Positions 1 through 18,000 are shown, counted from the stretch's first letter. The stretch is DNA of 64,000 bases from a virus (IMGVR_UViG_3300024346_008124:15098-79097), one strand, 5' to 3'. The notes: generated by a model from the sequence alone, not told the origin. A program made the numbers and translations.

Positions 1-1306
1 TTTCAGAGACTTTTTTCATTGGTCGATTATGCCTACTGTGGACGCAGAGCCGCAGGCTGACCAGTGGATTAATACGTATTCTTCTGCGGATTCCGTGTTT
101 GCATATTCTGAATTTGGTAGAGACACTATGCTTAAACAATGCGATAGTATAAAGTTTGTTGACATAGCATCGCCAGCGGCTAGCAATAGCTTTACACCAG
201 CACCGAATAAGCGCGACCATAAAATTAATATGGGCATTTCTCCAGACTCTTTCATTGTAGGAACGGTCATGAGAAACCAAAGAAGAAAGCTGTATCCAGA
301 TTTAATGGAGTCGTTTAGAAGATTTCTAGACCAAACCCAAGATCCAAACGCTTTCCTTTATTGTCACACATACTACCCAGATGTTGGTTGGGATCTACCT
401 AATCTAATTTATGAAAATGGGTTGTCTGGTAGAGTCTTGATGACATACAAGTGTAAATCCTGTAAAAATATATCTGTTGATTTCTTCAAGGATGCCGTTA
501 GCGCCTGTGATAAATGTAAATCATTCTCCAATGCCATAGTGGGAATATCTAATCCCATAGACGAAAAAGAGCTTTCTGATATATACAATTGTTTTGATAT
601 TTACGTTCAGTATGCTAATAGCGAAGGGTTCGGTATGCCCCAGCTAGAGGCTGCCAACTGCGGGCTACCCGTTATTTCTACTCACTACTCAGCTATGGAG
701 TCTGTTGTTAAAAATATTGGTGGATATGGGGTTATACCTAAGCAATACTATGTAGAATGTGAAACAGGGTGCAAGAGGGCTATACCAGATAACGATTCGT
801 TCGTTGGTCTTTTGACTCAGCTTCATAGTGAAAAAGATAAGTTAAAACAGTTAGGGTCTCAAGTTAGAGACAGAGCGTTAGAAAACTATAGCTGGGACAA
901 GACCGCCGATGCTTGGGCTAAACATTTTAACGCAGTAGAAAAAAAAGACCCAGCGACTACGTGGTATTCTCCGCTAAATGCGCCAGAGCCAGAAATAAAC
1001 ATGTTACAAAATCCAGAATCTATGGCGCATTCTGTAAATCATATATTTACTAATGTGTTACATAAGCCAGAATGGATAGGTGGTTATTTATGGAAGAGGG
1101 TTTTGAGAGACGTAACCTTCGGCTATAGGTGCGAAAACATGGATAAACAGTTCTATTTTAACGAATCTCATAAAAAAACCAACACTTCAAATGCTCCGTT
1201 CTGCCTAGAGGACGCATATAAAGAAATGATAAACTTTAGAAAGCAATTAAATAACTGGGAACACTCCAGAGTGCAACGTAACCAACAGGAGATGGAAAAT
1301 AAATGA
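1..1306 (+). CDS. GT4-family glycosyltransferase (5'-truncated by window edge), with inserted CxxC...CxxC segment
   Basis: Frame is open from base 2 (FRDFFHWSI-MPTV...), so the true start lies upstream. GT-B C-terminal motifs: VMRNQRRK and DIYVQYANSEGFGMPQLEAANCGLPVI (EGFG...E signature). Confidence 0.85.
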   Translation, partial: FRDFFHWSIMPTVDAEPQADQWINTYSSADSVFAYSEFGRDTMLKQCDSIKFVDIASPAASNSFTPAPNKRDHKINMGISPDSFIVGTVMRNQRRKLYPDLMESFRRFLDQTQDPNAFLYCHTYYPDVGWDLPNLIYENGLSGRVLMTYKCKSCKNISVDFFKDAVSACDKCKSFSNAIVGISNPIDEKELSDIYNCFDIYVQYANSEGFGMPQLEAANCGLPVISTHYSAMESVVKNIGGYGVIPKQYYVECETGCKRAIPDNDSFVGLLTQLHSEKDKLKQLGSQVRDRALENYSWDKTADAWAKHFNAVEKKDPATTWYSPLNAPEPEINMLQNPESMAHSVNHIFTNVLHKPEWIGGYLWKRVLRDVTFGYRCENMDKQFYFNESHKKTNTSNAPFCLEDAYKEMINFRKQLNNWEHSRVQRNQQEMENK

Positions 1307-2397
1307 AAGTCTTATATATAGGAAATTATAAAGACGGCACAGGTTGGGCGAACGCTTGTATAAATAATATATTGGCTTTAGACGCTGCGGGAATAGAGGT
1401 TGTTCCTAGAGCCATAACTTTTAACAAAGCAGACGGAGAGTGTCCAAAAAGAGTTTTAGAACTAGAGGGAAATTCTGAATCTGGTTGCGACACATGTATT
1501 CAACATACGCTTCCCCATTTATACTCGTACAATTCTAAGTTTAAAAATATAGGATTTTTAGCTACAGAAACTAGTAACTTTATAGAAAGTTCTTGGCAGC
1601 ATCATGCGAATCTTATGGATGAGATATGGGTTCCTACCAAGTCTTGCAAGTCTGCCTGTGTTCATAGTGGTGTTAATAAACCTGTAAAAGTCGCGCCTCA
1701 CTCCCTAGACCTCACGCCCTACCAGTCTGAAAAATATAGGCAAGACGGTCCAAAAGTTGATAATCTTGTAAACACATTCAATTTCGCCTTTGTCGGTGAA
1801 TTTGTAGAAAGGAAAAACTTACAAGCAATAGCTAGAGCTTTTCATTCAGAATTTGATTACGACGAACCCGTAAATCTATATGTAAAAACTTCTGCGCAGT
1901 CGTTAGAATATGTTCAAAATTATTTCGAGCAAGTGAGAAATGGTTTAAAAATAAGAAAGAAATACAAAGAAGAAATTGTTATATGCGGAAGCTTACCAAA
2001 AGAAAACTACATATCAGTATTGTCTCAGTGCCACTCTTTTGTTATGCCTAGTCGCGGAGAGGGTTTTTGTATTCCAGCGCTAGAGGCGATGGCGATGGGC
2101 ATTCCTGTAATCTACACAAAGGGAACAGGCATGGACGACTTCTGCTCAGGTTCTGCGGTAAAATCTTCAGAGGTTCCGTGCTTTGGCGCTATGTCAACAC
2201 TAGATTATTTATACACCTCTAATGAAAAATGGAGAGAGGTAGATATTGAAGACTTGATGGTATGTATGCGAAATGCATTTATGAGGTGGAAAACAAAGTG
2301 GGCTACAGAAGATAGTCACCAAGCCTTAAAGGGTGCTGAAAAATTTTCTCATAAAGAGGTAGGATTAAAATTAAAGGAGATACTAAATGACCGCTAG
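1303..2397 (+). CDS. GT4-family glycosyltransferase
   Basis: FVGEFVERKN and FVMPSRGEGFCIPALEAMAMGIPVI motifs; ATGA overlap with upstream gene. Confidence 0.9.
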   Translation: MKVLYIGNYKDGTGWANACINNILALDAAGIEVVPRAITFNKADGECPKRVLELEGNSESGCDTCIQHTLPHLYSYNSKFKNIGFLATETSNFIESSWQHHANLMDEIWVPTKSCKSACVHSGVNKPVKVAPHSLDLTPYQSEKYRQDGPKVDNLVNTFNFAFVGEFVERKNLQAIARAFHSEFDYDEPVNLYVKTSAQSLEYVQNYFEQVRNGLKIRKKYKEEIVICGSLPKENYISVLSQCHSFVMPSRGEGFCIPALEAMAMGIPVIYTKGTGMDDFCSGSAVKSSEVPCFGAMSTLDYLYTSNEKWREVDIEDLMVCMRNAFMRWKTKWATEDSHQALKGAEKFSHKEVGLKLKEILNDR

Positions 2398-3412
2398 TGC
2401 AAGCCAGAGAGCCATAAGATCAATAATGCGTAAATGTGATCCTGAAAGAAAGCTAAACATATTAACATTCGCCACGCACGAAAGATATGAAGAAAATCTT
2501 TGTAAAACTGGTCATAACTTTTATTCATTAGCGATTGGCAAGACTTGGGATACAGACTATGCTCCGGTTCCAGACAACTATCATATCATCAATACTATAC
2601 CGGACTACGTTGATTTTGATCTAATCTTGACACATACTTCATGTGACAGAATGTTTCAGGCACATCAACACTTAACCGGTTTAGATATTTCTAGCGGCAA
2701 TAAAACAGGCATCCCCATTCTTAGGCATACCCATGTTCTTCCTGACGTTAGGTTTGACGTAGCTGCTCAGATTGCAGCGTTTCAACAGTATCCAAGAGAC
2801 AAAGACTCATTTATATCTGAATACAACATGGGCGCTTGGGGTATGGTTAGCGGAACTTCTACTGGGGTTGTAGAACATGGCGTAAACACAGACTTTTGGA
2901 ATGATGGAAGGTTAAAAAGGGATGCCGTCTGCCTTTCTGTTGTGAATGATTGGCCCAATAGAGATTGGTGTTGCGGATTTAACCTTTGGAAGCAGACAGT
3001 TCAGGGTCTGCCTGTAAAAGTCTATGGTAAAAGTCCGGGGTTTTCTGAGCCTGCAAACTCTACAGAACACTTGAGAGAAATTTATCAATCTTCAAGAATA
3101 TTCTATAATACCTCTTTACACTCCCCTGTTCCCAGTGTATTATTAGAAGCTATGGCTTGTGGTTGCGCTATTGTTTCTACCTCCAACTGCATGATACCAG
3201 AAATAATCGAGAACGGCAAGAATGGACTAATTTCAAATGACCCCAAAGAACTGCGCAGCTTCTTAGAGCTTCTTCTTAAAGATGAAAACTTAGCAAAAGA
3301 ACTAGGTGGCAACGCTAGAAAAACCATAGTTGAAAAATATAATCTCGAAAGATTTGTTGATAGCTGGAACAATCTACTACACTCTACAGTAAATGAATAC
3401 AGGAACATATAA
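2387..3412 (+). CDS. GT4-family glycosyltransferase
   Basis: IFYNTS..SPVPSVLLEAMACGCAIVST..IPEIIENGKNGL motif; AAGGAG RBS. Confidence 0.88.
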   Translation: MTASASQRAIRSIMRKCDPERKLNILTFATHERYEENLCKTGHNFYSLAIGKTWDTDYAPVPDNYHIINTIPDYVDFDLILTHTSCDRMFQAHQHLTGLDISSGNKTGIPILRHTHVLPDVRFDVAAQIAAFQQYPRDKDSFISEYNMGAWGMVSGTSTGVVEHGVNTDFWNDGRLKRDAVCLSVVNDWPNRDWCCGFNLWKQTVQGLPVKVYGKSPGFSEPANSTEHLREIYQSSRIFYNTSLHSPVPSVLLEAMACGCAIVSTSNCMIPEIIENGKNGLISNDPKELRSFLELLLKDENLAKELGGNARKTIVEKYNLERFVDSWNNLLHSTVNEYRNI

Positions 3413-3828
3413 TGAAAATTTATCTATCTACCAAACCGCCCTCAGACATGTCATTCAAACACTGCTCAAATCTAGCTGCGTTAGAGGGCATGGCTTTAGA
3501 TGGCGAAGTAACGAGTCTAACAATAGATTGTTTTCTTTCTTCGTTTTCTTTTCAGGAAGTCAAAGAAGCGGTGCAAGAAATACTAAAAAAATGTAGAATG
3601 AAGTGTGAGGTTAATATTATAGAAATGGATTCTAATGTAATATTTAGGCTTTACACAAGGGGAGAGATACAGCTAGACTATTTAAACAACTTGTTTTTTA
3701 ATAGTCCGAAAAAAAGCGTCCTTAATACAGACACTATACAGTCCTGCATTCCTGATAATTTTTCCATAGAAGAAAAGTCAATATCTAGCCAAGGATTTTC
3801 AAGCATTAAAATTAGGAGAGTAGTATGA
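3412..3828 (+). CDS. hypothetical protein (possible degenerate methyltransferase-like fragment)
   Basis: TAATG coupling to the previous gene and ATGA coupling to the next; no clear motif. Confidence 0.6.
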   Translation: MKIYLSTKPPSDMSFKHCSNLAALEGMALDGEVTSLTIDCFLSSFSFQEVKEAVQEILKKCRMKCEVNIIEMDSNVIFRLYTRGEIQLDYLNNLFFNSPKKSVLNTDTIQSCIPDNFSIEEKSISSQGFSSIKIRRVV

Positions 3829-4625
3829 AACCGGAAACACACTGTGAAGGATGCGTATTTGCCGTAGAAAGAGACGGTAAGCAATCAGGATGTCAATTAT
3901 ACAGATCTGAAAAACTGGGGATAAAAGATAACGATGAAGACTTCTATACGCTAGAAAGGTACTGCAACACCTTTCGCCCAGAAGAGTGGCTAACAACGCT
4001 ATCTTTAAAAGACCACAAGAATAGACATCAAGTAGTACTAAAAGAAATAGTCTCTAGGGTTGGATTTTTTGTTGTTTTAGATACATCTAAAGAAAACGCC
4101 ATACAAGACCTGCAAATAACCATAGAGGACATAAAAAACCAAACACTGCACAGGGCTAGGTACGTGGTGGTTGTAACAGATAAAACTGAATACAATGAAG
4201 AAATTCAAAAGATGCTCGTAGAGAATTTTGACCACGACAAAACACTGCATCACCTAATAAAAGTTTCTCACATACCAGAAAAAAAGATGCTTTTAATTGA
4301 TGAATGCTTTAAACACGCTAAAAACGGATGGGTTTATACCACAACTTCCGGGCAGCGGGTTGATCAAGAGTTGATAGAGAAAATAAACCAAAGAGTAAAT
4401 ATAGATATGAAAAGACTATCTATAGTAAAGCCATACGAAGGTTTTAATGGACTATTGTTTTCAACTCCGCTTTTTAAATTTTTAAACGGAAATAATAAAA
4501 CCGCTTATGAAACAGAAGATGGCGAACTTGGATTTGACGATAGACCCTTTTTAGAAAAGGTTGAAGACATGAAAGACGAAACTGGCGAAACTCTTATTAC
4601 TTGGGAGGAATTTAATGCTTCCTAA
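3825..4625 (+). CDS. hypothetical protein with N-terminal Cys cluster and possible degenerate GT-A-like body
   Basis: N-terminal CEGCVF...GCQL...YCNTFR; AGGAG RBS; operon-coupled. Confidence 0.6.
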   Translation: MKPETHCEGCVFAVERDGKQSGCQLYRSEKLGIKDNDEDFYTLERYCNTFRPEEWLTTLSLKDHKNRHQVVLKEIVSRVGFFVVLDTSKENAIQDLQITIEDIKNQTLHRARYVVVVTDKTEYNEEIQKMLVENFDHDKTLHHLIKVSHIPEKKMLLIDECFKHAKNGWVYTTTSGQRVDQELIEKINQRVNIDMKRLSIVKPYEGFNGLLFSTPLFKFLNGNNKTAYETEDGELGFDDRPFLEKVEDMKDETGETLITWEEFNAS

Positions 4626-5349
4626 AATTGCTATTATCTGTGCTAACTATAACTACGGACGGTTTATTATTGAAGGCATGGAAAGTATAAAAAAACAACA
4701 CTACAAAGGCGAGATAAGGCTTTACATTGTAGACGATGGGTCTTCTGACGATTCATGGGAAAAAATATCAGAATTTGCAGAGAAAGATCCTGACTTTGTT
4801 TTTGCTCAAAGAATACAAAACTCAGGCGCTAGTGTGGCCCGTAACACAGCGTTAGCTGCCGCTTGGGAATGGGCTGATATATTTGGCATCCTAGATGCTG
4901 ATGACTCCTATAAGCTGAACAAGGTTGAAAAACTAGTAGAAAAGCTAATGGAATACCCAGAAGTTGGCGTTGCTTATGGAGACTATGATATTCATAGAAA
5001 CTATAGCGATAAACACTATGTAAAATATGAAGCTAAAGACTCATATTGCAGACGAGGATTATCTCAAAGTTGCATGATCCATAGTAACGCGCTTATCAAA
5101 AAAGAGTATTTAGAAAAGGTTGTGCTTCCTAATGGAGAAATCTTTGATAGTAGATTACATGGTCCCGCTAGCCGGGGTTTTATAGGATGTACAGAAGACT
5201 ACGACCTATGGCTAAGGCTGTCTCATTACTGTGTGATCTGCCATGTGCCAGAGTCTCTTTCTATAGTAAACGAAAGTGGTCAAAATCAATCTATGAAAAT
5301 GACACCGGAAATCTTTCAACAACAAGCTCAGATCTTAGGTAGTAGATAG
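4615..5349 (+). CDS. GT2-family glycosyltransferase
   Basis: IICANYNYGRFI, IVDDGSSD, NSGASVARN, LDADD (DxD), EDYDLWLR motifs. Confidence 0.93.
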   Translation: MLPKIAIICANYNYGRFIIEGMESIKKQHYKGEIRLYIVDDGSSDDSWEKISEFAEKDPDFVFAQRIQNSGASVARNTALAAAWEWADIFGILDADDSYKLNKVEKLVEKLMEYPEVGVAYGDYDIHRNYSDKHYVKYEAKDSYCRRGLSQSCMIHSNALIKKEYLEKVVLPNGEIFDSRLHGPASRGFIGCTEDYDLWLRLSHYCVICHVPESLSIVNESGQNQSMKMTPEIFQQQAQILGSR

Positions 5350-6077
5350 TGGCAAGATTTACAAGAGAAATAACAACCAGAGTAAAAAGTAAAAATAACA
5401 AAGACGATATGGCTGTTATAATACTTTCTGCCGGTGTTGGAAGTAGGATAAAATCAAACGAGCCTAGAAGCTTAATAAAAATAGGCAGCAAAACCCTAAT
5501 AGAGCATCAGATAGATTTAATAAACAACAATTTAGTAAACCATGAAATTATTGGAGCATTTGGTTATGCTATAGAAAAAATTATAAAGAAGATACATGGA
5601 AAAATAAGGGTTGTAGAAAATCAAGTTTATGAAGATACAAATAACTCAGAAAGTCTTAGGCTTGCTGTAAACAATACTAATAAAAATAATATAATGTTTT
5701 TTCATGGGGACTTATATTTTAACGATTCTATATTTAAAAACATAGATTTTAAAAAATCTTTTTTAGTTATAGATAGAAAAGATATGATGAAATCTAAAGA
5801 GATAGGGGTCACTATACAAAACAATAAAGCCACAATATTGTCATATGGACTTCCTACAAAGTGGTGTCAAACAGCATTTATCACAGGTAGGGAGTTGAAG
5901 ATATTAAGGAGTATTTTATCAAAACTTCAAGGCAGTCAGAAAAAAATGCTGTCTTTTGAGATAATAAATAAAATGATTTCTATGGGAGCGAATTTTGAAT
6001 GTTATGAACCAAACGATATGTCTATAGTAGAAATAGACTGCATAAAGGACTTAAAGAATGAAAATTTTAATCTGTAG
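5349..6077 (+). CDS. NTP-transferase family protein (sugar/choline-phosphate nucleotidylyltransferase-like)
   Basis: IILSAGVGSRI...PRSLIKIG, N..Y..TNN.ESL, HGDL, EID..KDL; GTG start overlapping the upstream TAG. Confidence 0.8.
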   Translation: MARFTREITTRVKSKNNKDDMAVIILSAGVGSRIKSNEPRSLIKIGSKTLIEHQIDLINNNLVNHEIIGAFGYAIEKIIKKIHGKIRVVENQVYEDTNNSESLRLAVNNTNKNNIMFFHGDLYFNDSIFKNIDFKKSFLVIDRKDMMKSKEIGVTIQNNKATILSYGLPTKWCQTAFITGRELKILRSILSKLQGSQKKMLSFEIINKMISMGANFECYEPNDMSIVEIDCIKDLKNENFNL

Positions 6078-7110
6078 CGATGGTCGTCACGCACACTACT
6101 TCCAAAGAATGGCTTGGGCAAACGCTTTCGCCGCCGTGGGGTATCAAGTTATGCTGTGGGACTGCAAGACCGTCCCGGCTTTTGACATATTTGATCAGTT
6201 TGAACCCGATGTGTTTTTGGGGCAGGCTTATAACCTAGACGAAGCTTTAATAAAGTGTATATATGAAAGACCACACCTGAAGGTGGGTCTACGTGCTGGA
6301 GACTGGGGAGACCAAGAAAAAGAAGTAGACAAGTCTAGGTACAACATTTTGTTCTGCTCCAAGAAAGAAAAAGAACTACTTAAAAAACTCAAAGACGAAA
6401 CGGGAAAACCAGACTTTGTACATATTCATTATAATGATGCCGACATTAAAAGAACTCATAACTATTTTGAAACCATCGGAATCAAACCTGTGTCGTTGAT
6501 GATGTGTGCAGATACAGCGGTTTACGGAGACGCTCAGGTTGATCAAAGGCTAACATGTGATATAGGCTTTGTGGGTGGCTATTGGCCTTACAAGGGGCAA
6601 GTGATTGACCGCTATCTTACTCCACTATTACATCCTCTTGACCGTTACAAGGTAAAAATATTTGGAAACCAGCCTTGGGGGGTAAATCAATACTGCGGAC
6701 TCATAGACGATGGCGATGTCAAAAACCTTTTTAAGTCTGCGAAGATATGTCCAAATCTTAGCGAGCCTCACGCACAGGTATACGGCATAGATGTAAATGA
6801 AAGAATATTTAAGATTCTATATGCGGGCGGCTTCTGTATTAGCGATAATGTAGAAGCATACAAGATGTTTGGTGATGGTATTGTAATTGCAGATTCTCCA
6901 GATGACTTTAGAGATAAGATTGAATACTATGCAAGCACTGATAAAGGGACGATAGATAGATCTTTTATTATTAAAAATGGTCAGGATTTTGTTACCGAAA
7001 ACCATACTGGCTTTCATAGGATTTCAACAATCATGGAAGCTGTTGGATACAGCGATGTAGCTGGGGAGATTTTGAAAGCTTACAAGGATAAATTAAATGA
7101 GCAAAAGTAA
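6058..7110 (+). CDS. CgeB-like (Glyco_trans_1_2) glycosyltransferase
   Basis: DIGFVGG, VKIFG..W, SAKICPNL, NERIFKILYAGGFCISD, HTGFHRI motifs. Confidence 0.82.
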   Translation: MKILICSDGRHAHYFQRMAWANAFAAVGYQVMLWDCKTVPAFDIFDQFEPDVFLGQAYNLDEALIKCIYERPHLKVGLRAGDWGDQEKEVDKSRYNILFCSKKEKELLKKLKDETGKPDFVHIHYNDADIKRTHNYFETIGIKPVSLMMCADTAVYGDAQVDQRLTCDIGFVGGYWPYKGQVIDRYLTPLLHPLDRYKVKIFGNQPWGVNQYCGLIDDGDVKNLFKSAKICPNLSEPHAQVYGIDVNERIFKILYAGGFCISDNVEAYKMFGDGIVIADSPDDFRDKIEYYASTDKGTIDRSFIIKNGQDFVTENHTGFHRISTIMEAVGYSDVAGEILKAYKDKLNEQK

Positions 7111-8062
7111 AGTTATTATTACGGGCGGCAGTGGTTTTCTTGGTAAGGCTGTAAACAAAACACTAAAAGACAATTTGTTCTATGACGTTGTGTCTCTTGG
7201 TGGTAAAAGAGATTACGATCTAACAAACCAAAAACAGGTTGACTATCTATATAAAGAACATGAACCAGATATAATTGTTCATTTAGCGGCTAAGGTTGGG
7301 GGAATAGGTGCCAACAAAGGTAATCCGGGCCTTTTTCTTTATGAAAATCTGGTCATGGGTATGAATCTTATAGAAACCGCCAGAAAGTATGGAAAGCTTA
7401 AAAAGTTTGTAATGATTGGAACGGTTTGTGCGTATCCTAAATTTACACCTGTGCCTTTTAAAGAAGAAGATCTTTGGAACGGATATCCAGAAGAAACTAA
7501 CGCGCCATACGGAATCGCTAAAAAAACCCTAACGGAAATGCTAATTGCCTATAATGACCAGTACGGTCTTAACTGCACAAACTTAATTCCTGTCAATATG
7601 TACGGACCCAATGATCATTTTGACCCCGCGATCAGTCATGTTATTCCCGCTATTATCTTAAAAATAGATAAAGCTATTGATAAAAAAGAAGGCGCTGTTG
7701 AGCTATGGGGTACTGGAAAAGCCAGTAGAGAGTTTCTATACATAAACGACTGTGCGGAAGCTATTAAAAAAGCAGTAGAAATAGACACTACCCCACATCC
7801 AATAAACATAGGAACAGGCTCTGAGTGTACAATTAAAGACTTAGCCAATAAAATCGGAAGGATGATGAACTACGAAGGATACGTAGGATTTAATACAAAT
7901 AGCCTAGACGGACAACCTAGGAGGTGTTTAGATACGTCTAAAGCAAGTAAGGTATTGGGATTTGAAGCTAAAACAGATCTTGATAGAGGGTTGCATGATA
8001 CAATAAGTTGGTACTACAAAAATAAGGAAAAGTTTGTTGATTACTTCGATCATATTCAGTAA
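7097..8062 (+). CDS. fcl: GDP-L-fucose synthase / GDP-4-keto-6-deoxysugar epimerase-reductase (Fcl/WcaG/ColC type)
   Basis: ITGGSGFLG, HLAAKVGGIGAN, GTVCAYP, YGIAKK (YxxxK), SHVIPA, WGTGKASREF, DGQPRR. Confidence 0.93.
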   Translation: MSKSKVIITGGSGFLGKAVNKTLKDNLFYDVVSLGGKRDYDLTNQKQVDYLYKEHEPDIIVHLAAKVGGIGANKGNPGLFLYENLVMGMNLIETARKYGKLKKFVMIGTVCAYPKFTPVPFKEEDLWNGYPEETNAPYGIAKKTLTEMLIAYNDQYGLNCTNLIPVNMYGPNDHFDPAISHVIPAIILKIDKAIDKKEGAVELWGTGKASREFLYINDCAEAIKKAVEIDTTPHPINIGTGSECTIKDLANKIGRMMNYEGYVGFNTNSLDGQPRRCLDTSKASKVLGFEAKTDLDRGLHDTISWYYKNKEKFVDYFDHIQ

Positions 8063-8894: not shown

Positions 8895-9637
8895 ATTACG
8901 ACTTAATTATACCGTGTCATCCTAAAGACTATTTTAAGTTAAAATATTGCATTAGTTCCTGTGTAGAATTTTTAAATCCCAAACCTCAAAACATTTACAT
9001 AGTTTCTCCAAATGAATTTTCTTTTACATCCCCGTCCATACCTATACACTCTATCCAAGACGAGTTTGCGATAAGAACTGATATAAATGATATTAATTTT
9101 CAAAGAAAAAACTGGATATATCAACAATTCATAAAACTAGGACAGGACTTTACTAAAAATGATATGTATCTATGTGTTGATAGCGATCTCTTCTTTAATA
9201 AGCCTATAGAATTATTCGATGAAGACAAGCCCAAGTTCTTTATAAGCGATAGAGAACAGCACCACCAGCCCTACTTTAACTTCATGAAAATATCTCATGA
9301 TTTAGATAGACAGGTAGATCATACTTTTATTAATGACTTTATGATGTTTGACAGAAGTGTTTGCCACGAAATTATTGGTAACGATCTAAGTAACTTGTCG
9401 CCACTCCTAGGATTCTGTAATAAAAATCTTTCAGACGACTGCCTCCTTTCTGAGTTTGAACTATATGGAAACTATGTTTCTAAGCACTATCCTGATTTGT
9501 ATGCAAAACAAAATACAAAAACAAAAATGTTCGGAAGACATGTAAATCAACCTTGGAACGAAAGCGAGATTGATCAATACGTAAAATATATGAAAGATAC
9601 TGACTACGACTTATTCACCATGCATACTTGGACATAA
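8891..9637 (+). CDS. putative GT-A glycosyltransferase (DUF6492-like)
   Basis: IPCHPKD, WIYQQFIKL, VDSD (DxD), LSEFELYGNY. Confidence 0.7.
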   Translation: MNYDLIIPCHPKDYFKLKYCISSCVEFLNPKPQNIYIVSPNEFSFTSPSIPIHSIQDEFAIRTDINDINFQRKNWIYQQFIKLGQDFTKNDMYLCVDSDLFFNKPIELFDEDKPKFFISDREQHHQPYFNFMKISHDLDRQVDHTFINDFMMFDRSVCHEIIGNDLSNLSPLLGFCNKNLSDDCLLSEFELYGNYVSKHYPDLYAKQNTKTKMFGRHVNQPWNESEIDQYVKYMKDTDYDLFTMHTWT

Positions 9638-9638
9638 T

Positions 9639-10490: not shown

Positions 10491-11242
10491 TTGAAGACTT
10501 TATAAGCGGAGATAAGTTTAAACAATTTTGTGATTTTGATTTTAGAAATCCTAAATTTAGATCAGACAAAAAATCTTATGTTATATACTCCGATCTAGAC
10601 CGCTATGTAGACGCTATAAGCTTTGCCTCTCAGCATAGGGATAGGAATTTTGTTCTTGTTTCTCATAATGGAGACAAGACCGTAAATCATACGGGTCTAC
10701 CGTTAAATATAAAGGCTTGGTATACTCAAAACCTAAACTTTGCTCACGATAGAGTTTTCGCTCTGCCTATAGGATTAGAAAATCCCCAGTGGCACCCCGG
10801 TAAAATTCCTCAGATGCTACGTATGACAGAGTCTTCAAAGCGAGTGAGCAAGGGGTTTTGCCAATTTAATCCAGACACATATCCCAAAGAGAGAAAAGAC
10901 CTAGTACAAGACCTACAAAACAACCAGATAGAGGTAGATTCATACGAATGTATAAACGGTGAAAAATTCTTTCAATACTTATTTAATTTGAAGATTTATA
11001 AATACTGCTTTTGTCCGCGAGGAAACGGAATTGACACACATAGAATTTGGGAAGCTTTATATATGGGGTGTGTGCCAGTTGTAAAAAGACATATAACGCA
11101 TGAGTTTTATGGAGATAAACTTCCTATAATGTTTGTAGATGAATGGCAAGATTTTAAAGATGTTGAATTTAAAATAAGTAGTTTTCAAAACCCCATTTTA
11201 ACAATGAAATACTGGAAAAATAAAATATGTCAAAGCCTTTAA
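10487..11242 (+). CDS. exostosin/GT47-like glycosyltransferase
   Basis: SHNGD, LPIGLEN, YKYCFCPRGNGIDTHRIWEALYMGCVPVV (exostosin C-terminal motif). Confidence 0.8.
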   Translation: MIEDFISGDKFKQFCDFDFRNPKFRSDKKSYVIYSDLDRYVDAISFASQHRDRNFVLVSHNGDKTVNHTGLPLNIKAWYTQNLNFAHDRVFALPIGLENPQWHPGKIPQMLRMTESSKRVSKGFCQFNPDTYPKERKDLVQDLQNNQIEVDSYECINGEKFFQYLFNLKIYKYCFCPRGNGIDTHRIWEALYMGCVPVVKRHITHEFYGDKLPIMFVDEWQDFKDVEFKISSFQNPILTMKYWKNKICQSL

Positions 11243-12165
11243 CAATCGACTTCCGCAATATGTGGGGAGGATTCTTTAAGCACGACAACCTGATAACAAA
11301 TACCCTGTCGCTAGAATATGAAGTCTCTGTAGACGAGCAAAATCCAGACATAGTGGTTTGTCAGGTGTGTCCCAAGAGCCACGGCGCTCCCGATCCCCAA
11401 TCGCTTACCCAGTCGTTAAAAGGTAAGTCTAAAATAATCTATTGGCTAGTAGAGTCTATAGATAGAACGGGAGATCCCGACTATTCAAGCTGTGACTTTT
11501 CTTTTTCTTCCTGTCAACACCAAGATCAGAGAAACGTAAGGGTTCCGCTTTGGTCTATGTATGTTAACTGGTTTAAAGACAAGCAAGAAAGCTATATAGA
11601 GGAAAGAAATCAATCATTTCTAGTTTCGCCAACCAAGCTATTGCAGGCAAGAGATCATTCTCAGAAGAATAAGTTTTGTTGTATATTGACAAATAACGAC
11701 ATGGGCATGAGAAAAGAGGTTTATCCAGCATTTATAGGGCTTGGGATAGAGAACGGATTGCTAGTAGAAAGTAGGGGGCGATACTTAACAAATATGCCAG
11801 CTATATTAGATGGCGAAAAAGATAAGCTAGAATATATAGATGCATTTAAGTTTAACCTTTGCTACGATAACGGAGAGGCCGCCGGTTGGGTTACTGAAAA
11901 ACTAATTCACCCAATATATCAGGGATCTATACCTATCTACTGGGGATGTAGTAACGTTGCTTCAGAGTTTAATCAGGATAGATTTATCCACGCAAGAAAC
12001 TTTGACAATCTACAGTCTATGTGGGACAAAGTTATGGAAATAAACTATAATAGAGACTTATTCTTAGATATTCAGTCACAGCCCTGTTTTCCAAACAACA
12101 CAATTCCTGATTGCGCCAATCCAGAATTTTTGATAGAAGAATTTAAGAAAGTGGTGGAAGCATGA
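11227..12165 (+). CDS. GT10 alpha-1,3/4-fucosyltransferase-like protein
   Basis: K..YI..FKFNLCYDN...GWVTEKL.....GSIPIYWG....EFN...FI (GT10 GDP-Fuc-binding motif). Confidence 0.88.
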   Translation: MSKPLTIDFRNMWGGFFKHDNLITNTLSLEYEVSVDEQNPDIVVCQVCPKSHGAPDPQSLTQSLKGKSKIIYWLVESIDRTGDPDYSSCDFSFSSCQHQDQRNVRVPLWSMYVNWFKDKQESYIEERNQSFLVSPTKLLQARDHSQKNKFCCILTNNDMGMRKEVYPAFIGLGIENGLLVESRGRYLTNMPAILDGEKDKLEYIDAFKFNLCYDNGEAAGWVTEKLIHPIYQGSIPIYWGCSNVASEFNQDRFIHARNFDNLQSMWDKVMEINYNRDLFLDIQSQPCFPNNTIPDCANPEFLIEEFKKVVEA

Positions 12166-13322
12166 CAATAAAACTATGTTCTGACATAATAGACAAACAA
12201 GATATAAACAACTTGATATCTTGGCTAGAGACTATGCCGAGGCTGACAAAAGGCCAAAAAACGTTAGAGTTTGAACAGATGTTTTCTTCCTACGTTGGGT
12301 GTGAGCATTCTATTTTTTGCAACTCAGGGTCTTCTGCGAACCTACTCATCACTTCTGCTCTAATGCAAAGCGGCATGATGAAAAATGATAAAATTATAGT
12401 ACCTCAAGTATCTTGGTCTACAACCGTGTTTCCGGCTATGCAGCTAGGTCTGAAGCCGATAATGTGTGATTGTAACCTTTCAAACCTAGGTATTGATCTA
12501 GATCATTTTGAATGGCTGGTTAAAAACCATAAACCCGCCGCCGTTATATTGGTGCATGTCTTAGGGCTAGAATCAAATATAGAAAAGGTGACGCAAATAT
12601 GTGAGGATCATAATGTTATACTAGTGGAGGATACTTGCGAAAGCTTGGGTTCTTCTGTAGCCGGAAAGAAACTTGGAAATTTTGGGCTAGCTAGTTCTTT
12701 TTCTTTTTACTTTGGGCATCATATATCAACAATTGAAGGAGGTATGGTTTGCACAAATGATAAAGAGTTTGCAGATATTATTAAAATGATAAGAAGTCAT
12801 GGGTGGGATAGAGATTTAGATGAAGAGGCAAAACTTAAATACAAGAAACAGTACGGCGTTAAAGAGTTTGACTCTTTGTATAAGTTTTATTATCAGGGTT
12901 TTAATCTTAGGTCTACTGATTTGCAGGCGGTCATTGGTATAAATCAAATGTCTAAAATAGACAACATATCAAACGTAAGACAAAGAAACTATAATCATTA
13001 CCTAAAGTCTATAAAAAGTGAACTATGGAAACCTCACTCACGACAGGAGGTGGTTTCTAATATGGGATATCCATTAATTGTTGGAAATAGAGAGGATTTA
13101 TCTAGCGCTTTAGACGATAATGGTGTAGAATGTAGACCACTAGTCTCTGGAAGCATGGGCGCTCAACCAGCTTGGAAAAAAGAGTACGGAGAACTGACTA
13201 TGCAGAACGCATCTGTAGTAAATAACAATGGTATGTATGTCCCCAATCATCAAGACTTAACAATTCAAGATATTGACAAAGTTTGCAAAATAATTAACGA
13301 CACAGGAAATCCGCATGTCTGA
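12162..13322 (+). CDS. colD: DegT/DnrJ-family PLP enzyme, ColD-type GDP-4-keto-6-deoxymannose 3-dehydratase
   Basis: NSGSSANLL, VSWSTT, EDTCESLG, SFYFGHHISTIEGG (His in place of the catalytic Lys), RSHGWDR, GFNLRST, ECRPLVSG. Confidence 0.75.
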   Translation: MTIKLCSDIIDKQDINNLISWLETMPRLTKGQKTLEFEQMFSSYVGCEHSIFCNSGSSANLLITSALMQSGMMKNDKIIVPQVSWSTTVFPAMQLGLKPIMCDCNLSNLGIDLDHFEWLVKNHKPAAVILVHVLGLESNIEKVTQICEDHNVILVEDTCESLGSSVAGKKLGNFGLASSFSFYFGHHISTIEGGMVCTNDKEFADIIKMIRSHGWDRDLDEEAKLKYKKQYGVKEFDSLYKFYYQGFNLRSTDLQAVIGINQMSKIDNISNVRQRNYNHYLKSIKSELWKPHSRQEVVSNMGYPLIVGNREDLSSALDDNGVECRPLVSGSMGAQPAWKKEYGELTMQNASVVNNNGMYVPNHQDLTIQDIDKVCKIINDTGNPHV

Positions 13323-14133
13323 AATAATCAATCTAATACCAAACAATCCAGATGTACACGTTTATTCTAGAGCCGTAGAGTTATTGTCTGAAAAGCTGGA
13401 AGAAGACTACTCTTTCATAATAAACGTCTGGGATCACGAAATGCCAAAAGATACTAAGTATCCTAAGATTCTTGTATCGACCTCTGATGAGGCTCATAAG
13501 ATGCCTAGCCAAGCCTATGATGGCAGCTATGTGCATGTGTTTAAGCAATATCAACCCATGATAAACACAGACGACCCCCTTTCTATAATAACTTCTGACA
13601 AAGTTACCGCCATACCCTTGTGCGAGCTAGATGGTATAGAAGATAAACAAATACCAATCTTGGAAAGAGAATACGACTGGTCTTGGATGGGGCAATTTGA
13701 CCCCTACAGAAGAGTAGAATTTAGGAATTCTATAACACAACTAGAAAAAAACGAAAAGTTAAAAAACAAAGTTTTGTGGTATGAGGGATGGAACAATGGA
13801 GAATCTACAGAATCTTACTGTGACGTTTTAAATCAGACAAAGATTATGCCCGTTCCTCGCGGTTCAGGCAGTCTAGAGTCATTTAGATTTTTTGAAGCTG
13901 CTAGATGTGGCTGTATACCCGTTTGCACTCAGCAGCCTCATGTAGATTTTTATAACGTTGCTCCTTATTTTTCAATTTCTTCTTGGTCTCACTTTGGAGA
14001 ATTTGTAGAAAACATGAAACAAAGACAAAGCGAGATGGAATACCTGTCTGAACAGGTTAAAAACTGGCACAAATACTTCTGCTCCCCTCAAGGGCTTGCC
14101 GACTTTATGTACAAGAGGATTAAAAATGTATAA
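13315..14133 (+). CDS. exostosin/GT47-like glycosyltransferase
   Basis: TSDE, REYDWSWMGQ, TKIMPVPRG...ESFRFFEAARCGCIPV. Confidence 0.75.
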   Translation: MSEIINLIPNNPDVHVYSRAVELLSEKLEEDYSFIINVWDHEMPKDTKYPKILVSTSDEAHKMPSQAYDGSYVHVFKQYQPMINTDDPLSIITSDKVTAIPLCELDGIEDKQIPILEREYDWSWMGQFDPYRRVEFRNSITQLEKNEKLKNKVLWYEGWNNGESTESYCDVLNQTKIMPVPRGSGSLESFRFFEAARCGCIPVCTQQPHVDFYNVAPYFSISSWSHFGEFVENMKQRQSEMEYLSEQVKNWHKYFCSPQGLADFMYKRIKNV

Positions 14134-14806
14134 AACATATGTCATGCACTATAAGCCACTACGAGACAGAAAGGAATTTATACTAAAGCAACTGTCTTCA
14201 AAGGGTATAGAAAATTTTGAATTTATAACGGATTTTGATAAAGATGTTTTGACAGAAAAAATCATAGAAGATTACTACCTAGAAGATGAAGAAAAACACT
14301 TCAAAGAGTGCCAAGTCTCTATGAGACAAGGAGAAAAATACCAATTCCAAAAAATGAAGTACGCCAGCATATCCCTTTGTATAAAGCATGTTGAGGCTTT
14401 TGAAAAAACAAAACAGCAAGAAGAAGATTTCGCACTATTTCTAGAAGATGATTGTAGATTTCATCAAGATTCTACATCTTTAGAAGAAATAATATCAAAA
14501 GCGCCACAAGACTGGGATGCCATAGTAATAGGTGGCCCATTTAAACATGATATATGCCAATACAACTTCATAGTCGGAGATGACAATTCAGCCTACTTAA
14601 AAGCTAAACATCCCGCGACTAATACGACTAGTAGTATACTCTACAGAAAGTCTACAGCAGAAAAAATAATGCCGTATGTGAAACCCTTTTCACTACCTAT
14701 TGATTGGCAGCTTAACTTTGCTTTCTGGAAAGCTAAATTAAACGTGTATCACATTTATCCATATATATCCACACAGGGAGACTTTAAGAGTACCGCAAAT
14801 GATTAA
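14126..14806 (+). CDS. GT25-family glycosyltransferase
   Basis: YVMHY..L.DRK, SLCIKH, LFLEDD, LPIDW motifs; start moved to ATG 14126 behind GAGGA. Confidence 0.85.
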   Translation: MYKTYVMHYKPLRDRKEFILKQLSSKGIENFEFITDFDKDVLTEKIIEDYYLEDEEKHFKECQVSMRQGEKYQFQKMKYASISLCIKHVEAFEKTKQQEEDFALFLEDDCRFHQDSTSLEEIISKAPQDWDAIVIGGPFKHDICQYNFIVGDDNSAYLKAKHPATNTTSSILYRKSTAEKIMPYVKPFSLPIDWQLNFAFWKAKLNVYHIYPYISTQGDFKSTAND

Positions 14807-15632
14807 TGTTAAATATGTAGGAAGGCTTGGAAACAACATGTTTCAGTATTCTCTAGGTAGGATACTAGCAGAGTCTATGGGTTTGAGACTTAATTCACCG
14901 CCCATTCCAGAGTTCTCCAGAACTTTTGAACTAGTAAACCCAGAGCGAATAGAACCCTATGAGCCAATTGTTTTTAATGACCACGTTTTAAGAATAAATG
15001 ATGAGCCTGTATCTGTAGAAGATATAGTTAATCTGAAAGATAAAGCCGTATACCTCGATGGATGGTTTCAAAGATACGAATATTACAAGCCCTATAAACA
15101 AAAAATTAGAGAATGGCTGGACATAGAAGATATAGACGTAGGACAGACGGATAACGATGCGATTGTTCACTTACGTATGGGCGATTGTATAACGGGAGAC
15201 TTAGCAAAAGACCCATATGTGATGCCTCATGGGTACTTTAACAAAGCTCTAGAGATTATGGATTTTGATAATCTTTTCATATGCTCAGATCCAGAGACTT
15301 TAAATCATCCACTATTTAAAAAATACATGGAGAATTTTAAAGAATACTGTCCCACACTACTATGTGGAGATAAAATAGAAGATTTTAGAGCCATAAAATC
15401 GTTTGATAAAATAGTCATGTCTCAAAGTACATTTTCTTGGTGGGGTGCATTCTTATCAAACGCTTCTCAAATATTTGTTCCGGTTCCAGAGCCGGGACCG
15501 CACACCAACGAATGGAGCCTAGAGAGCAGAAACGTTGCCGTTTTTGTAGATGACGAAGATAGATACAGCTACTTAAAGCAGTATGGGACAGAGTGGAAAC
15601 TAGTAAACCTTAAAGATATACCGGAGACATAA
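14799..15632 (+). CDS. GT11 alpha-1,2-fucosyl/colitosyltransferase-like protein
   Basis: GRLGNNMFQY, LDGWFQ, VHLRMGD, ICSD, SQSTFSWWGAFL are GT11 motifs. Confidence 0.9.
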   Translation: MINVKYVGRLGNNMFQYSLGRILAESMGLRLNSPPIPEFSRTFELVNPERIEPYEPIVFNDHVLRINDEPVSVEDIVNLKDKAVYLDGWFQRYEYYKPYKQKIREWLDIEDIDVGQTDNDAIVHLRMGDCITGDLAKDPYVMPHGYFNKALEIMDFDNLFICSDPETLNHPLFKKYMENFKEYCPTLLCGDKIEDFRAIKSFDKIVMSQSTFSWWGAFLSNASQIFVPVPEPGPHTNEWSLESRNVAVFVDDEDRYSYLKQYGTEWKLVNLKDIPET

Positions 15633-15633
15633 A

Positions 15634-16209
15634 ATGGAAAACAATTTTTATAACAAAGAGTATTGGTACGATAATTCACAAGAGCATTCAGACGTAGATA
15701 ACTATGGAGAAAATTACTACGCTTACAAAATATATAAAAACTTAATACTAAAACTTAAAGACATACCAGATACAGGATATATTGTTCTACTAGGAACAAA
15801 CAGATGTGTATCGTTTAATTTACTATGTGACCACTTCGGAAAAGATAGGTGTATCGGTTTTGATATTCACAATCCCACAAATCACCCGCGCGTTAAAATT
15901 AAAGACTGCACAAAATTATCAGAACTAGACAATATACCCATAGCATTTTGCCACAACGACTTGGGAAGTTTTCCAAAAACTCCAAAATTAAAAATACATG
16001 GGCAAAATTGGGCTGCCGCAAATATAATTAATGGAGGATATTTTTTAGGAAGGAATAATTTAAATGCTGCTAAATTTAAATCAGAAGAGTTTATGAAAGA
16101 CTTAGGATTTGAAAACAAGCAATTTAAGGATATTGTAAATGATTACGATATGACAGACTTTGAAGAATCTTGCATAGAGGGACACATGATCTCAAGGAGA
16201 ACCGTATGA
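15634..16209 (+). CDS. hypothetical protein, possible SAM-dependent methyltransferase-like
   Basis: IVLLGT, CIGFDI, AFCHND, INGGYF pattern resembles a Rossmann methyltransferase; weak. Confidence 0.45.
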   Translation: MENNFYNKEYWYDNSQEHSDVDNYGENYYAYKIYKNLILKLKDIPDTGYIVLLGTNRCVSFNLLCDHFGKDRCIGFDIHNPTNHPRVKIKDCTKLSELDNIPIAFCHNDLGSFPKTPKLKIHGQNWAAANIINGGYFLGRNNLNAAKFKSEEFMKDLGFENKQFKDIVNDYDMTDFEESCIEGHMISRRTV

Positions 16210-16868
16210 GCATAATAAAAGACTACAATCTAGATAAATACAACTTCTGTGAAGAGGTAAAGAATATTTTTTATGTTGATGAATTAAAAAATCTACACAT
16301 AGAAAGAAGCGATTTATTACCTCAAGATAAATTAAACTTTGACAATGAGACAAAAACAGACTTTCATTCCACCTTTTACGGGGGTTTAAAGTCTAAAAAA
16401 GGAAAGGCTATAAAAGATATTTACAATAGCTTCATTTCCGAGATTGTTGCACCTATGTTTAATAGAAGTTTCGTGTATCAGGCTTTTCCAAGCTTTAGGG
16501 TCCACATACCCAACGACCAAGCTGTGCATAAATGGCACTATGATTCTGACGAAAACCACAACCACCCCGATTGGGAGATAAACTTTCAGCTAGCGCTTAC
16601 TAATATGTACGAAAGTAACGCTATGTGGATAGAATCGGTTCCGGGGCTTAGAGACTTTAAACCTTTGGAAATGAATCTTGGGCAATTCGCAATTTTTTAT
16701 GGCAATCAGTGCGCTCATGGGAATAAGGAGAATACAACTGGTAACACAAGGGTTAGTATGGATTTTAGGGTTATCCCATATGAAAAATATGATGAATCTA
16801 AAGCAAAGAATTCCGCTACCGCAAATACAAAATTTGTTATTGGAGAATATTATAGGCTGTATAAATAA
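16206..16868 (+). CDS. StrG-like 2OG-Fe(II) oxygenase
   Basis: YQAFPSFRVH.P, WHYD (HxD), EINF..ALT, HGN..N.TG.TRVSMDFR; start moved to ATG 16206 (ATGA overlap). Confidence 0.8.
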   Translation: MSIIKDYNLDKYNFCEEVKNIFYVDELKNLHIERSDLLPQDKLNFDNETKTDFHSTFYGGLKSKKGKAIKDIYNSFISEIVAPMFNRSFVYQAFPSFRVHIPNDQAVHKWHYDSDENHNHPDWEINFQLALTNMYESNAMWIESVPGLRDFKPLEMNLGQFAIFYGNQCAHGNKENTTGNTRVSMDFRVIPYEKYDESKAKNSATANTKFVIGEYYRLYK

Positions 16869-17518
16869 TGTACACTAAAACACAAGATGTAATAGAACTA
16901 CTAGAGAAGCAAGGTTACAGTATAAGTGACCCTTGGGATATCGTGGAAGCTTTTGAAGACAAGGTCGCAAAATACGCAGGCAGTAAGTATGCGGTAGCTA
17001 CAGACAGTTGTACCAATAGTATATTTCTATGCTTAAAGTATCTGCAAGCAACCGGCAAAGTGGAAGTCCCGAAGAAGACATATTTATCTGTACCTCAAAG
17101 TGTTATCCACGCAGGATGTGAGGTTGAATTTACTGATCTTGAGTGGTCTGGAGCCTATAGACTAAACCCATATCCAATTGTAGACAGCGCCACGAAGTTT
17201 ACTAAAGGTATGTATATTGAAGATTCGTATCAATGTCTGTCTTTTCACATTAGAAAAATACTACCCATTGCTAAAGGTGGTATGATATTGACAAACGACA
17301 AGAGTGCTGTAGAGTGGCTTAAACTAGCAGAGTACGAAGGAAGAGATAGGCGTGTCCCTCACGACGAAATGCCGCCCCCAGCCATGCTGGGATGGAATAT
17401 GTACATGCCCCCTGAGCAGGCCGCTAGGGGCATAGAACTGTTTGAACAAGCTAAAGACTTTAACGAAGACTCTGGCGGTTCTTGGAAATATAAAGACATA
17501 TCACACTATAAATACTAA
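16868..17518 (+). CDS. short DegT/DnrJ/EryC1/StrS aminotransferase-like protein (C-terminal domain absent)
   Basis: FE...A.Y.G.KYAVATDSCT, DSA, CLSFHIRKILPIAKGGMIL (Lys retained), GWNMYM; only 216 aa. Confidence 0.78.
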   Translation: MYTKTQDVIELLEKQGYSISDPWDIVEAFEDKVAKYAGSKYAVATDSCTNSIFLCLKYLQATGKVEVPKKTYLSVPQSVIHAGCEVEFTDLEWSGAYRLNPYPIVDSATKFTKGMYIEDSYQCLSFHIRKILPIAKGGMILTNDKSAVEWLKLAEYEGRDRRVPHDEMPPPAMLGWNMYMPPEQAARGIELFEQAKDFNEDSGGSWKYKDISHYKY

Positions 17519-17529
17519 TAGGAATTTTA

Positions 17530-18000
17530 ATGATAAATGTATCAGCTTTAATAGGAGACTTAGGACCATCACAAAAGTCTTTTTATCTAATAAAAGCCTT
17601 TAACGAGCTTTCTAGAAATCCAAACCTATCCTGTACGGCTTTTGTTTTAAAGATATCGCCGCCATATACAAAACCTCTTTTTTCATGCTCCAGCGTTTCG
17701 TTTCTTTCTAACTATAACGGTGTATGTTTAGCCACTAACCTAGAAGAAGCTCAAATTCTTCTTAAATCAAACAACAATTCTAAAAAATATCTTTACCTGT
17801 GGGATATGGAATGGATTAAAAGACCAATGAACTACTCTCAGGTCTGCGATATACTGCTAGATGATAGACTAAGTATTATATCAAGAAGCGACTCGCACTC
17901 CTGCATGATAGAAAACTACTGTAATAAACCTCCAATAGCCACCATACAAGATTGGAACCCGTCCCAAATTTTAGAAATACTGGAAAAAACCCATGCCTAA
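17530..18000 (+). CDS. hypothetical protein (possible GT-B N-terminal half)
   Basis: AGGA RBS; KKYLYLWDMEW and IISRS motifs; operon-coupled. Confidence 0.6.
   Translation: MINVSALIGDLGPSQKSFYLIKAFNELSRNPNLSCTAFVLKISPPYTKPLFSCSSVSFLSNYNGVCLATNLEEAQILLKSNNNSKKYLYLWDMEWIKRPMNYSQVCDILLDDRLSIISRSDSHSCMIENYCNKPPIATIQDWNPSQILEILEKTHA

Follow-up and report, generated by a model that had tools for sequence, protein, structure and literature searches.

What would a tailed phage do with 21 consecutive genes for glycan assembly, and on which acceptor would the product be built? The locus that raises this question lies in IMGVR_UViG_3300024346_008124:15098-79097, a stretch of 64,000 nucleotides (hereafter, the window) that forms the final 64 kb of a 79,097-bp viral contig from IMG/VR. 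We added the preceding 15 kb as L002 and compared the contig with two complete relatives (G001 and G002), further large contigs (G003 to G006), and a minimal one (G008), calling families from Pfam matches at E<1e-3. Gene content, enzyme solubility, the pattern of conservation, and the absence of export genes revealed a clade-wide, export-less phage glycan system with a conserved core, a swappable island, and a separate late GT9/sulfotransferase module. Glycosylation of the phage's own virion is the best reading of this system, and we favor it tentatively.

A conserved glycan core and a hypervariable island

The glycan array comprises 21 co-directional genes over 17.9 kb, from contig position 14757 (window position -340) to window position 17518, and all of its junctions are overlaps or gaps of no more than 11 nucleotides. 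After four conserved small genes, it meets the 3′ end of the minus-strand tail operon head-on at about 19.9 kb. An initial annotation of the window had described about 20 coupled genes facing the virion module, and both the coupling and the convergence are borne out. Its family roster was likewise confirmed by Pfam, which supports 10 glycosyltransferases (GTs) in the array, with up to four weaker GT-like open reading frames (ORFs) besides. The supported enzymes are three GT4 proteins (548, 364, and 341 amino acids, or aa), a GT2 (244 aa), a CgeB-like Glyco_trans_1_2 protein (350 aa), two GT47/RXYLT1-like proteins (251 and 272 aa), a GT10 (312 aa), a GT25 (236 aa), and a GT11 (277 aa); both GT47-like matches are below Pfam gathering scores, and the GT25 match is just below. 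For the first GT4, the family had been given correctly, but the real protein is 548 aa long and starts upstream of the window. Nucleotide-sugar enzymes are represented by an NTP_transf_3 nucleotidyltransferase, an Fcl-like epimerase/reductase, a ColD-type DegT protein, and a 216-aa DegT fragment. The core and semi-core genes are as follows.

Window 1..1306, plus strand (start 340 nucleotides upstream; L002:14757-16403): universal GT4, 548 aa; Pfam, alignment, AlphaFold2 (AF2), and Foldseek; in all relatives
Window 1303..2397, plus strand: second universal GT4, 364 aa, with E-x7-E; Glyco_trans_1_4, 2.6e-14; kept in all relatives, including G008
Window 2387..3412, plus strand: third GT4, 341 aa, core; Glycos_transf_1, 6.6e-17; kept in G001 to G006
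Window 3412..3828, plus strand: uncharacterized core ORF, 138 aa; no family match; 26-37% identity among relatives
Window 3825..4625, plus strand: core ORF, 266 aa, possibly GT-A/GT2-like, a lead only; Pfam GT2, E 0.044; Atlas
Window 4615..5349, plus strand: GT2, 244 aa, core; Glycos_transf_2, 1.2e-23
Window 5349..6077, plus strand: sugar-phosphate nucleotidyltransferase, 242 aa, core; NTP_transf_3, 1.3e-7; NCBIfam matches generic only
Window 6058..7110, plus strand: CgeB-like GT-B, 350 aa, closing the universal core; Glyco_trans_1_2, 1.6e-16; 52-68% identity among relatives
Window 7097..8062, plus strand: Fcl-like GDP-L-fucose synthase epimerase/reductase, semi-core; Epimerase, 6.6e-55; NCBIfam GDPFucSynFcl
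Window 8034..8894, plus strand: semi-core ORF, 286 aa, weak GT2-like lead; no Pfam or PDB match; Atlas lead

The GDPFucSynFcl match of the Fcl-like protein scores 272 bits, under the 500-bit cut-off, and the enzyme could also serve as a ColC. The initial annotation had further counted three GT-A-like proteins, for which the support is weak. The 266-aa ORF combines its GT2 match with an Atlas assignment to virus-only clusters with GT2-like features (score, 0.92), and the 286-aa ORF has the Atlas lead alone. The remaining candidates are a 248-aa protein with a DUF6492 match (E 0.002) and a 283-aa protein with no match. PDB sequence searches with the 266- and 286-aa ORFs, and with a 298-aa ORF of the late operon discussed below, returned nothing useful.

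Across the clade, gene order is strict: a replication module, the glycan core, a variable segment, four anchor genes, and the convergent tail operon. The core itself runs GT4 (548 aa), GT4, GT4, the 138-aa ORF, the 266-aa ORF, GT2, nucleotidyltransferase, and CgeB-like GT. The Fcl gene and the 286-aa ORF follow in all relatives but G001 and the minimal G008, so that the core has 8 to 10 genes, these two joining the eight in most members. It is syntenic, at an identity like that of the replication genes, in five of five large relatives and at 22 loci, and the 548-aa GT4 was found in each of the five. Searches with this GT4 and with a conserved tail protein each recover dozens of IMG/VR contigs, and DnaE finds only distant matches in cultured phages. 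Homologs of the universal GT4 also occur on contigs binned to metagenome-assembled genomes (MAGs) of at least 10 unrelated phyla, archaea included. Such bins (L204-L218) are labeled, among others, Flavobacteriales, SAR202, Verrucomicrobiales, Paceibacteria, Promethearchaeota, and Thermoplasmatales, and one contig in a "SAR202" MAG is 152,655 bp long. These contigs are probably phage genomes that were mis-binned, without a usable host signal.

The variable segment of this contig is window 8891-17518, with 11 genes, and is absent from G001 to G004. It consists of two parts and is bounded downstream by the anchor genes.

Window 8891..14806, plus strand: island part 1; 248-aa DUF6492-like protein, 283-aa protein, GT47-like, GT10, ColD-type 3-dehydratase, GT47-like, GT25
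Window 14799..17518, plus strand: island part 2; GT11, 191-aa protein, 232-aa protein, truncated DegT-like protein (216 aa); Pfam
Window 17530..19867, plus strand: conserved anchor genes bounding the hot-spot; 156 aa, 259 aa (DUF559-like), 257 aa, and a 110-aa Zn-ribbon protein

G005 carries seven island genes at the same site, with 43-64% identity, and is the only sharer of part 1 among five full-length relatives; genes of part 2 were not found in G001 to G006. Homologs of the GT10, at 67% identity, are present in three other viral contigs. The ColD-type protein matches PDB 2GMS (E 1.6e-62) and retains "HH" opposite the ColD "HH," where the Lys of aminotransferases is replaced; the H188N variant, 3B8X, differs from it precisely at this site. 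The sole ColC candidate is the Fcl-like gene, which occurs too in relatives without ColD. A ColD homolog with the diagnostic His and an Fcl/ColC-like reductase are features shared with the E. coli O55 GDP-colitose pathway (ColD/WbdK, 2GMS). At the island edge, the 216-aa DegT-like ORF (window 16868-17518, plus strand) aligns to no more than the N-terminal portion of that profile in aminotransferases and is probably a truncated remnant.

Measured from its first GT4 to the anchor downstream, the locus is 18.3 kb long in this contig, and in the relatives its length ranges widely (G006, 28.5 kb; G003, 18.4 kb; G005, 15.6 kb; G004, 14.2 kb; G002, 14.1 kb; G001, 7.9 kb; G008, 4.7 kb). The hot-spot in these relatives always holds sugar chemistry. 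Among the 47 non-matching hot-spot ORFs of G003, G004, G006, and G008 are four GT2s, three GMD-type dehydratases, three FkbM methyltransferases, two DegT proteins, two FdtA proteins, two sulfotransferases, a formyltransferase, and CmcI- and C-methyltransferases. Hot-spot ORFs of relatives (L095-L099; G003, G004, and G006) also match a eukaryote-type GT29 sialyltransferase (3e-19), NeuB (1e-79), and a DHDPS/NanA-like protein, which suggests nonulosonic-acid decoration in some members of the clade. The largest example, G006, has about 32 genes at its glycan locus. The locus is a conserved glycan core joined to a hypervariable decoration island.

Outside the array, a third GT47/RXYLT1_C-like gene (L002:9834-10760) sits within the replication module, between a PD-(D/E)XK nuclease and DnaE. 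It is common only to G005, which is also the sharer of the glycan island; in G002 and G004, a distant paralog instead follows the RecA-like gene.

Export genes, lifestyle, and GDP-sugar supply

A search for export genes depends on how much of the genome is covered. The complete relatives, which have direct terminal repeats, measure 148,313 bp (G002) and 168,799 bp (G001), and the CheckV completeness of 13% reported for our contig conflicts with these lengths. Judged by the 148-169 kb of the complete relatives, our contig amounts to roughly half a genome, and the CheckV value is wrong.

The initial annotation had recognized no export genes in the first 18 kb of the window. This extends to the 15 kb upstream, the remaining contig, and the two complete relatives, where we found no flippase, polymerase, ABC permease, or initiating phosphoglycosyl transferase. 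Searches for the initiators PF02397 (WbaP/Bac_transf) and PF00953 (WecA/Glycos_transf_4), with positive controls, gave none in the contig, G001, G002, G003, or G005. Membrane segments were scored with a 19-aa Kyte-Doolittle window at a cut-off of 1.6. Outside the tape measure, no window in any ORF of the 79-kb contig reaches this value, and the GTs indeed have no membrane anchor, as had been proposed. In the greedy ORF sets of G001 and G002, no ORF has more than three transmembrane-like segments. The tape measure itself (window 43532-51394, minus strand) has two strongly hydrophobic segments at aa 1069-1161. No tyrosine integrase turned up in the relatives that were searched, which makes lysogenic conversion unlikely.

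Where the initial annotation had looked to the rest of the genome for gmd, the relatives supplied it: GMD-like genes are present elsewhere in G001, G002, G003, and G005, and none was seen in the half-genome contig. Since four relatives carry them, the clade is predicted to make GDP-4-keto-6-deoxymannose itself, and GMD is probably missing from the contig only through partial sequence. In G003 (G003:C1:8085-9224), the gmd model matched in three pieces within one 398-aa frame, which suggests that this GMD-like protein carries insertions relative to canonical GMD.

The universal GT4 and the late GT9-fold/sulfotransferase module

The universal GT4 has the E-x7-E motif EGFGMPQLE in the alignment, together with a conserved four-Cys insert (C-x2-C...C-x2-C) and a conserved C-terminal helical extension of about 115 aa. 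Its AF2 model (pLDDT, 89) finds as best Foldseek match B736L of the chlorovirus NY-2A (3OY2; E 2e-22; target TM score, 0.81; 16% identity). Next come GlgM, MshA, sucrose-phosphate synthase, PimB', and BshA, all soluble GT4s with small cytosolic acceptors. The family comprises 2,342 clusters at 90% identity, many of them from Tara Oceans, on contigs of up to about 155 kb. Among cultured phages, the few homologs are GTs of small siphoviruses. In S-CBS4, a distant homolog shares the stretch between the portal and the head protease/major head genes with a second GT and a methyltransferase.

A second set of glycan genes lies apart from the array, in the minus-strand late operon, where the order is a Laminin_G_3 protein, an 878-aa fiber, a 298-aa ORF, and a sulfotransferase.

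Window 58877..60589, minus strand: GT9-fold GT (298 aa), then sulfotransferase (270 aa); AF2/Foldseek, and Sulfotransfer_3 at 1.5e-20
Window 60660..63296, minus strand: 878-aa Ser/Thr/Gly-rich repeat fiber, candidate acceptor; from sequence, with a UspA1_rep match that is weak here and 6e-15 in the homolog L104

The 298-aa protein has no Pfam family. Its AF2 model (pLDDT, 88) adopts a GT9-type GT-B fold, and Foldseek matches it to 3TOV, 1PSW, 4RB4, and 6DFE at E values of 7e-10 to 2e-8; the GT9 enzymes 3TOV, WaaF, TibC, and WaaC score between 1e-9 and 1e-7. No heptose pathway gene was recognized in the contig. The resemblance to the TibC/AAH autotransporter heptosyltransferases includes the GT9 fold, the place of TibC among the top matches, and an adjoining adhesin-like Ser/Thr-rich repeat protein. 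Unlike those systems, the protein scores equally well against WaaF and WaaC, at about 12% identity, and it has a sulfotransferase partner, which TibC systems lack.

The family of the 298-aa protein is large: it comprises 2,230 clusters, and at least 300 viral contigs, from 5 to 385 kb in length, carry a member. A sulfotransferase partners the GT9-fold gene in 73 of 80 loci and lies immediately downstream in 65. The two genes form a mobile module (loci L101-L180), often with genes for adenosine 5′-phosphosulfate (APS) kinase and an ATP-sulfurylase-like protein. Recurrent neighbors are the APS kinase, a small ATP-sulfurylase/cytidylyltransferase-like protein, DUF2061, GT8, a GT2-methyltransferase, and GT25. 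The APS kinase and ATP-sulfurylase-like genes imply phage-made 3′-phosphoadenosine 5′-phosphosulfate and sulfated glycans. Homologs of the sulfotransferase are found in the cyanophages S-SKS1, S-SCSM1, and S-SRM01.

The fiber is built from a repeat unit, GG-x-x-NTAS-x-x-x-STV, and UspA1-repeat fibers with this unit likewise recur near the module. Of 80 GT9-like loci (1.0 Mb), 21 have such fibers; the count is zero in 69 control loci from the clade (1.0 Mb) and also in G001 and G002, both of which are without the module. Complex prediction for the GT9-fold enzyme with fiber residues 490-740, run without controls, gave a score of 0.00, which carries no weight in either direction. The evidence that the GT9/sulfotransferase pair acts on the virion fiber or on its glycan is circumstantial but specific, and it probably does so.

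The genes around these two sets are those of a phage. In L002, upstream of the array, are PhoH, a RecA-like protein, DnaB, a Toprim primase, a T4 gp1-type deoxynucleoside monophosphate (dNMP) kinase, and the PD-(D/E)XK nuclease, followed by the GT47/RXYLT1-like gene and then by a two-ORF DnaE enclosing an RNase T-type exonuclease. The split DnaE (L002:10723-14734) has an N-terminal half of 523 aa (PHP and pol3 alpha) and a C-terminal half of 522 aa (fingers/HHH/OB). A 72-aa ORF and the exonuclease lie between the halves; in G001, one 1,139-aa ORF matches both. The RecA-like protein is 360 aa long here (L002:3106-4188) versus 700 aa in G002 (G002:87423-89525) and 677 aa in G001 (G001:111497-113530), with about 300 aa aligning, a size gap that suggests an insertion, fusion, or intein in G001 and G002. 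The minus-strand late operon encodes a 2,620-aa PhageMin_Tail tape measure; its giant neighbors of 3,293, 2,140, and 1,419 aa are hypervariable among relatives. Scans for sigma-70 promoters and terminators over window 1-20000 gave counts equal to those in shuffled sequence and are uninformative on timing.

The acceptor

We propose that the locus acts as a phage-autonomous, cytoplasmic glycan assembly line. The core of 8 to 10 genes would build a conserved inner glycan, and the downstream recombination hot-spot would add strain-specific decorating enzymes, in this contig the GT10, GT11, GT25, and GT47-like proteins and the ColD 3-dehydratase. From Fcl, GMD, and ColD together, the phage would obtain GDP-fucose and a 3,6-dideoxyhexose of the colitose type. 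Since we see genes neither for an initiator or lipid-carrier enzyme nor for a flippase, polymerase, or exporter, direct assembly on an acceptor inside the infected cell is the most likely route, and the most plausible acceptors are surface-exposed virion proteins of the phage itself. The second, late-expressed module would probably modify the adjacent repeat fiber or the glycan on it. We infer both the acceptor and the composition of the glycan, and the support for the virion is indirect: the GT9/sulfotransferase pair beside the repeat fiber, the structural match to B736L, and the S-CBS4 homolog in a head module.

Giant viruses offer one close parallel. The systems that glycosylate the chlorovirus capsid (PBCV-1 and NY-2A) and the mimivirus fibril also use soluble viral GTs with GMD and GDP-fucose synthase and are without export or lipid-carrier machinery, and B736L of NY-2A is the closest structure to the universal GT4. 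Chlorovirus and mimivirus glycans have a conserved core with lineage-specific decoration. The differences are that we deal here with a prokaryotic host and a tailed phage of 150-170 kb, that the sequence relationship to B736L goes no further than the family (16% identity), and that attachment to a virion protein, as on the capsid or fibril of giant viruses, is here a prediction.

A second parallel is found in mycobacteriophages, where cytoplasmic O-glycosylation of capsid and tail proteins has been attributed to, or demonstrated for, soluble GTs of the phage (Freeman et al. 2023, cited in PMC12619734). Those systems have one to four GT genes beside capsid or tail-tube genes, and the late-operon GT9-fold gene and the S-CBS4 homolog similarly lie within virion modules. 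Our locus differs: it has at least 21 genes on the replication strand, brings its own supply of nucleotide sugars, and includes a hypervariable island. Its main cluster converges, from the opposite strand, on the end of the tail operon, and only the GT9/sulfotransferase pair is inside the late operon. In the mycobacteriophage systems, the glycan sites are C-terminal Ser/Thr residues; among the virion proteins here, only the 878-aa fiber is strongly Ser/Thr-rich.

Several observations weigh against a virion acceptor. The main cluster shares its strand with the replication genes and lies outside the virion operon, and an initiator and exporter of the host may be borrowed by the phage. Soluble GT4 and GT2 enzymes also serve lipid-linked intermediates in ordinary polysaccharide pathways, so GTs without transmembrane segments are not diagnostic. 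The contig covers only about half a genome, and the clade is without a cultured member: when 50,697 phage records were searched by tblastn with the conserved tail protein, none matched. The controls for the repeat-fiber association were drawn from one clade only. A general Ser-Gly sequon was considered and rejected: virion proteins, on the minus strand, have an observed-to-expected SG ratio of 1.22, and the non-virion proteins of the plus strand have one of 1.16 (for the GS control, 0.99 and 1.07, respectively), and the only outlier is the 878-aa fiber, at a repeat-driven 1.76. Finally, co-variation of island type with the giant tail protein was not consistent: the 3,293-aa protein is shared by G005, the sole sharer of the island, but two of the contigs with a 67%-identical GT10 have proteins of about 3,100 aa that match ours over only about 135 residues.

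Of the alternatives, remodeling of the host envelope is the strongest, although we consider it less likely than the virion reading. Here, soluble GTs would redecorate undecaprenyl-linked or lipid A-core intermediates that host flippases or ABC exporters then display; the purpose could be to block superinfection or to keep progeny off debris. The GT4, GT2, GT25, GT10/11, Fcl, and ColD families are typical of O-antigen and lipooligosaccharide loci, the variability of the island is like O-antigen diversity, and the cluster is co-directional with early/replication genes. It is also the published reading for the lytic cyanophage P-SSM2, which has 24 sugar genes in two clusters (PMC1079782). P-SSM2 resembles our phage in having large blocks of epimerase, transferase, and synthase genes, its "LPS (lipopolysaccharide) genes," in a lytic marine phage; ours belongs to another lineage (2,620-aa tape measure and DnaE replication), with a core-plus-hot-spot layout that is documented clade-wide. 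With its 24 genes, and about 32 at the locus of G006, the initial description of our array as unusually elaborate for a tailed phage was overstated. Bacterial O-antigen and capsule loci of the Wzx/Wzy or ABC type share with the array clustered GT and nucleotide-sugar genes of the same families and chemistry, but the array has no initiator, flippase, polymerase, chain-length regulator, ligase, or exporter. The two complete genomes likewise yield no initiating transferase, flippase, polymerase, ligase, or exporter. No integrase was found, and the gene set is strictly lytic; a short lytic cycle would leave little time for surface turnover. The GT core is kept to about 40% identity across a diverse clade, which is a poor fit with host-specific, lipid-linked acceptors.

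Some other intracellular acceptor is improbable. The product could be an oligosaccharide, either free or joined to a small molecule; alternatively, the enzymes could modify proteins of the host, or phage proteins outside the virion, for example for anti-defence or metabolic reprogramming. The structural relatives that rank behind B736L use small cytosolic acceptors, and the missing export genes suit this idea as well. A hypervariable island for outer decoration, however, is expected of a surface structure under diversifying selection rather than of a metabolite inside the cell, and nothing points positively to a particular target.

Sugar hypermodification of phage DNA is very improbable, despite the position of the cluster. 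GT-Bs encoded after the polymerase genes (the 548-aa GT4 and the GT47-like protein of the replication module) would glycosylate phage DNA against restriction. The cluster adjoins DnaE, the exonuclease, and the T4 gp1-type dNMP kinase, a GT47-like gene is within the replication module, and the four-Cys (Zn-ribbon) insert of the universal GT4 could bind nucleic acid. Phage GTs akin to lipopolysaccharide and teichoic-acid enzymes put mono- to trisaccharides on 5-hydroxymethylcytosine (bioRxiv 10.1101/2023.12.21.572611), and poly-arabinosylated 5-hydroxycytosine is present in phage DNA (PMC13326640). All known routes, however, require a ThyA homolog, or a C5-methyltransferase plus TET. The complete G002, and G003 and G005, are without PF00303 and PF00145, and a ThyA-family gene is present only in G001, while PF00145 is missing there too; a search for TET/JBP (PF12851) gave no match, its control genomes being silent too. 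Ten to thirty GTs, with fucose/colitose, methyltransferase, and sulfotransferase chemistry, are far beyond any known DNA glycan.

An assembly chimera of a bacterial O-antigen locus and phage DNA, which the initial annotation had raised, has a negligible chance: the slightly lower GC content of parts of the array (0.33-0.34 versus about 0.39-0.42 elsewhere) would fit it, but the contig is genuine phage DNA, with a locus that is syntenic in independent assemblies, the same gene order in two circularly permuted/direct-terminal-repeat complete genomes and several independent contigs, array genes that overlap across junctions, and seven island genes that G005 keeps in the same place, which rules it out.

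Returning to glycosylation of the virion, a more specific picture is possible, if doubtful: virions of this clade may wear an LPS-like coat, with a conserved inner glycan and a rapidly exchanged outer decoration that is swapped at one hot-spot, giving "serotypes." The outer decoration would be of fucose/colitose type and possibly sulfated in this phage, and elsewhere it may contain nonulosonic acid, methyl, or formyl groups. Such serotypes would affect adsorption, adhesion to marine gels, grazing, or recognition.

If the host envelope is the target, these would be rare strictly lytic phages that spend more than 10% of the genome on host surface glycans. If the virion is the acceptor, self-made complex glycan coats would not be limited to giant eukaryotic viruses and a few actinophages, and the enzymes to suspect first of recognizing the acceptor are the two universal GT4s. 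The annotation of "auxiliary metabolic" GT genes would change. For a very abundant group of ocean phages, a diversifying glycan coat would then be a regular trait, and ideas of phage surface chemistry would shift accordingly, as regards adsorption, aggregation with marine polysaccharides, and antigenic diversity.

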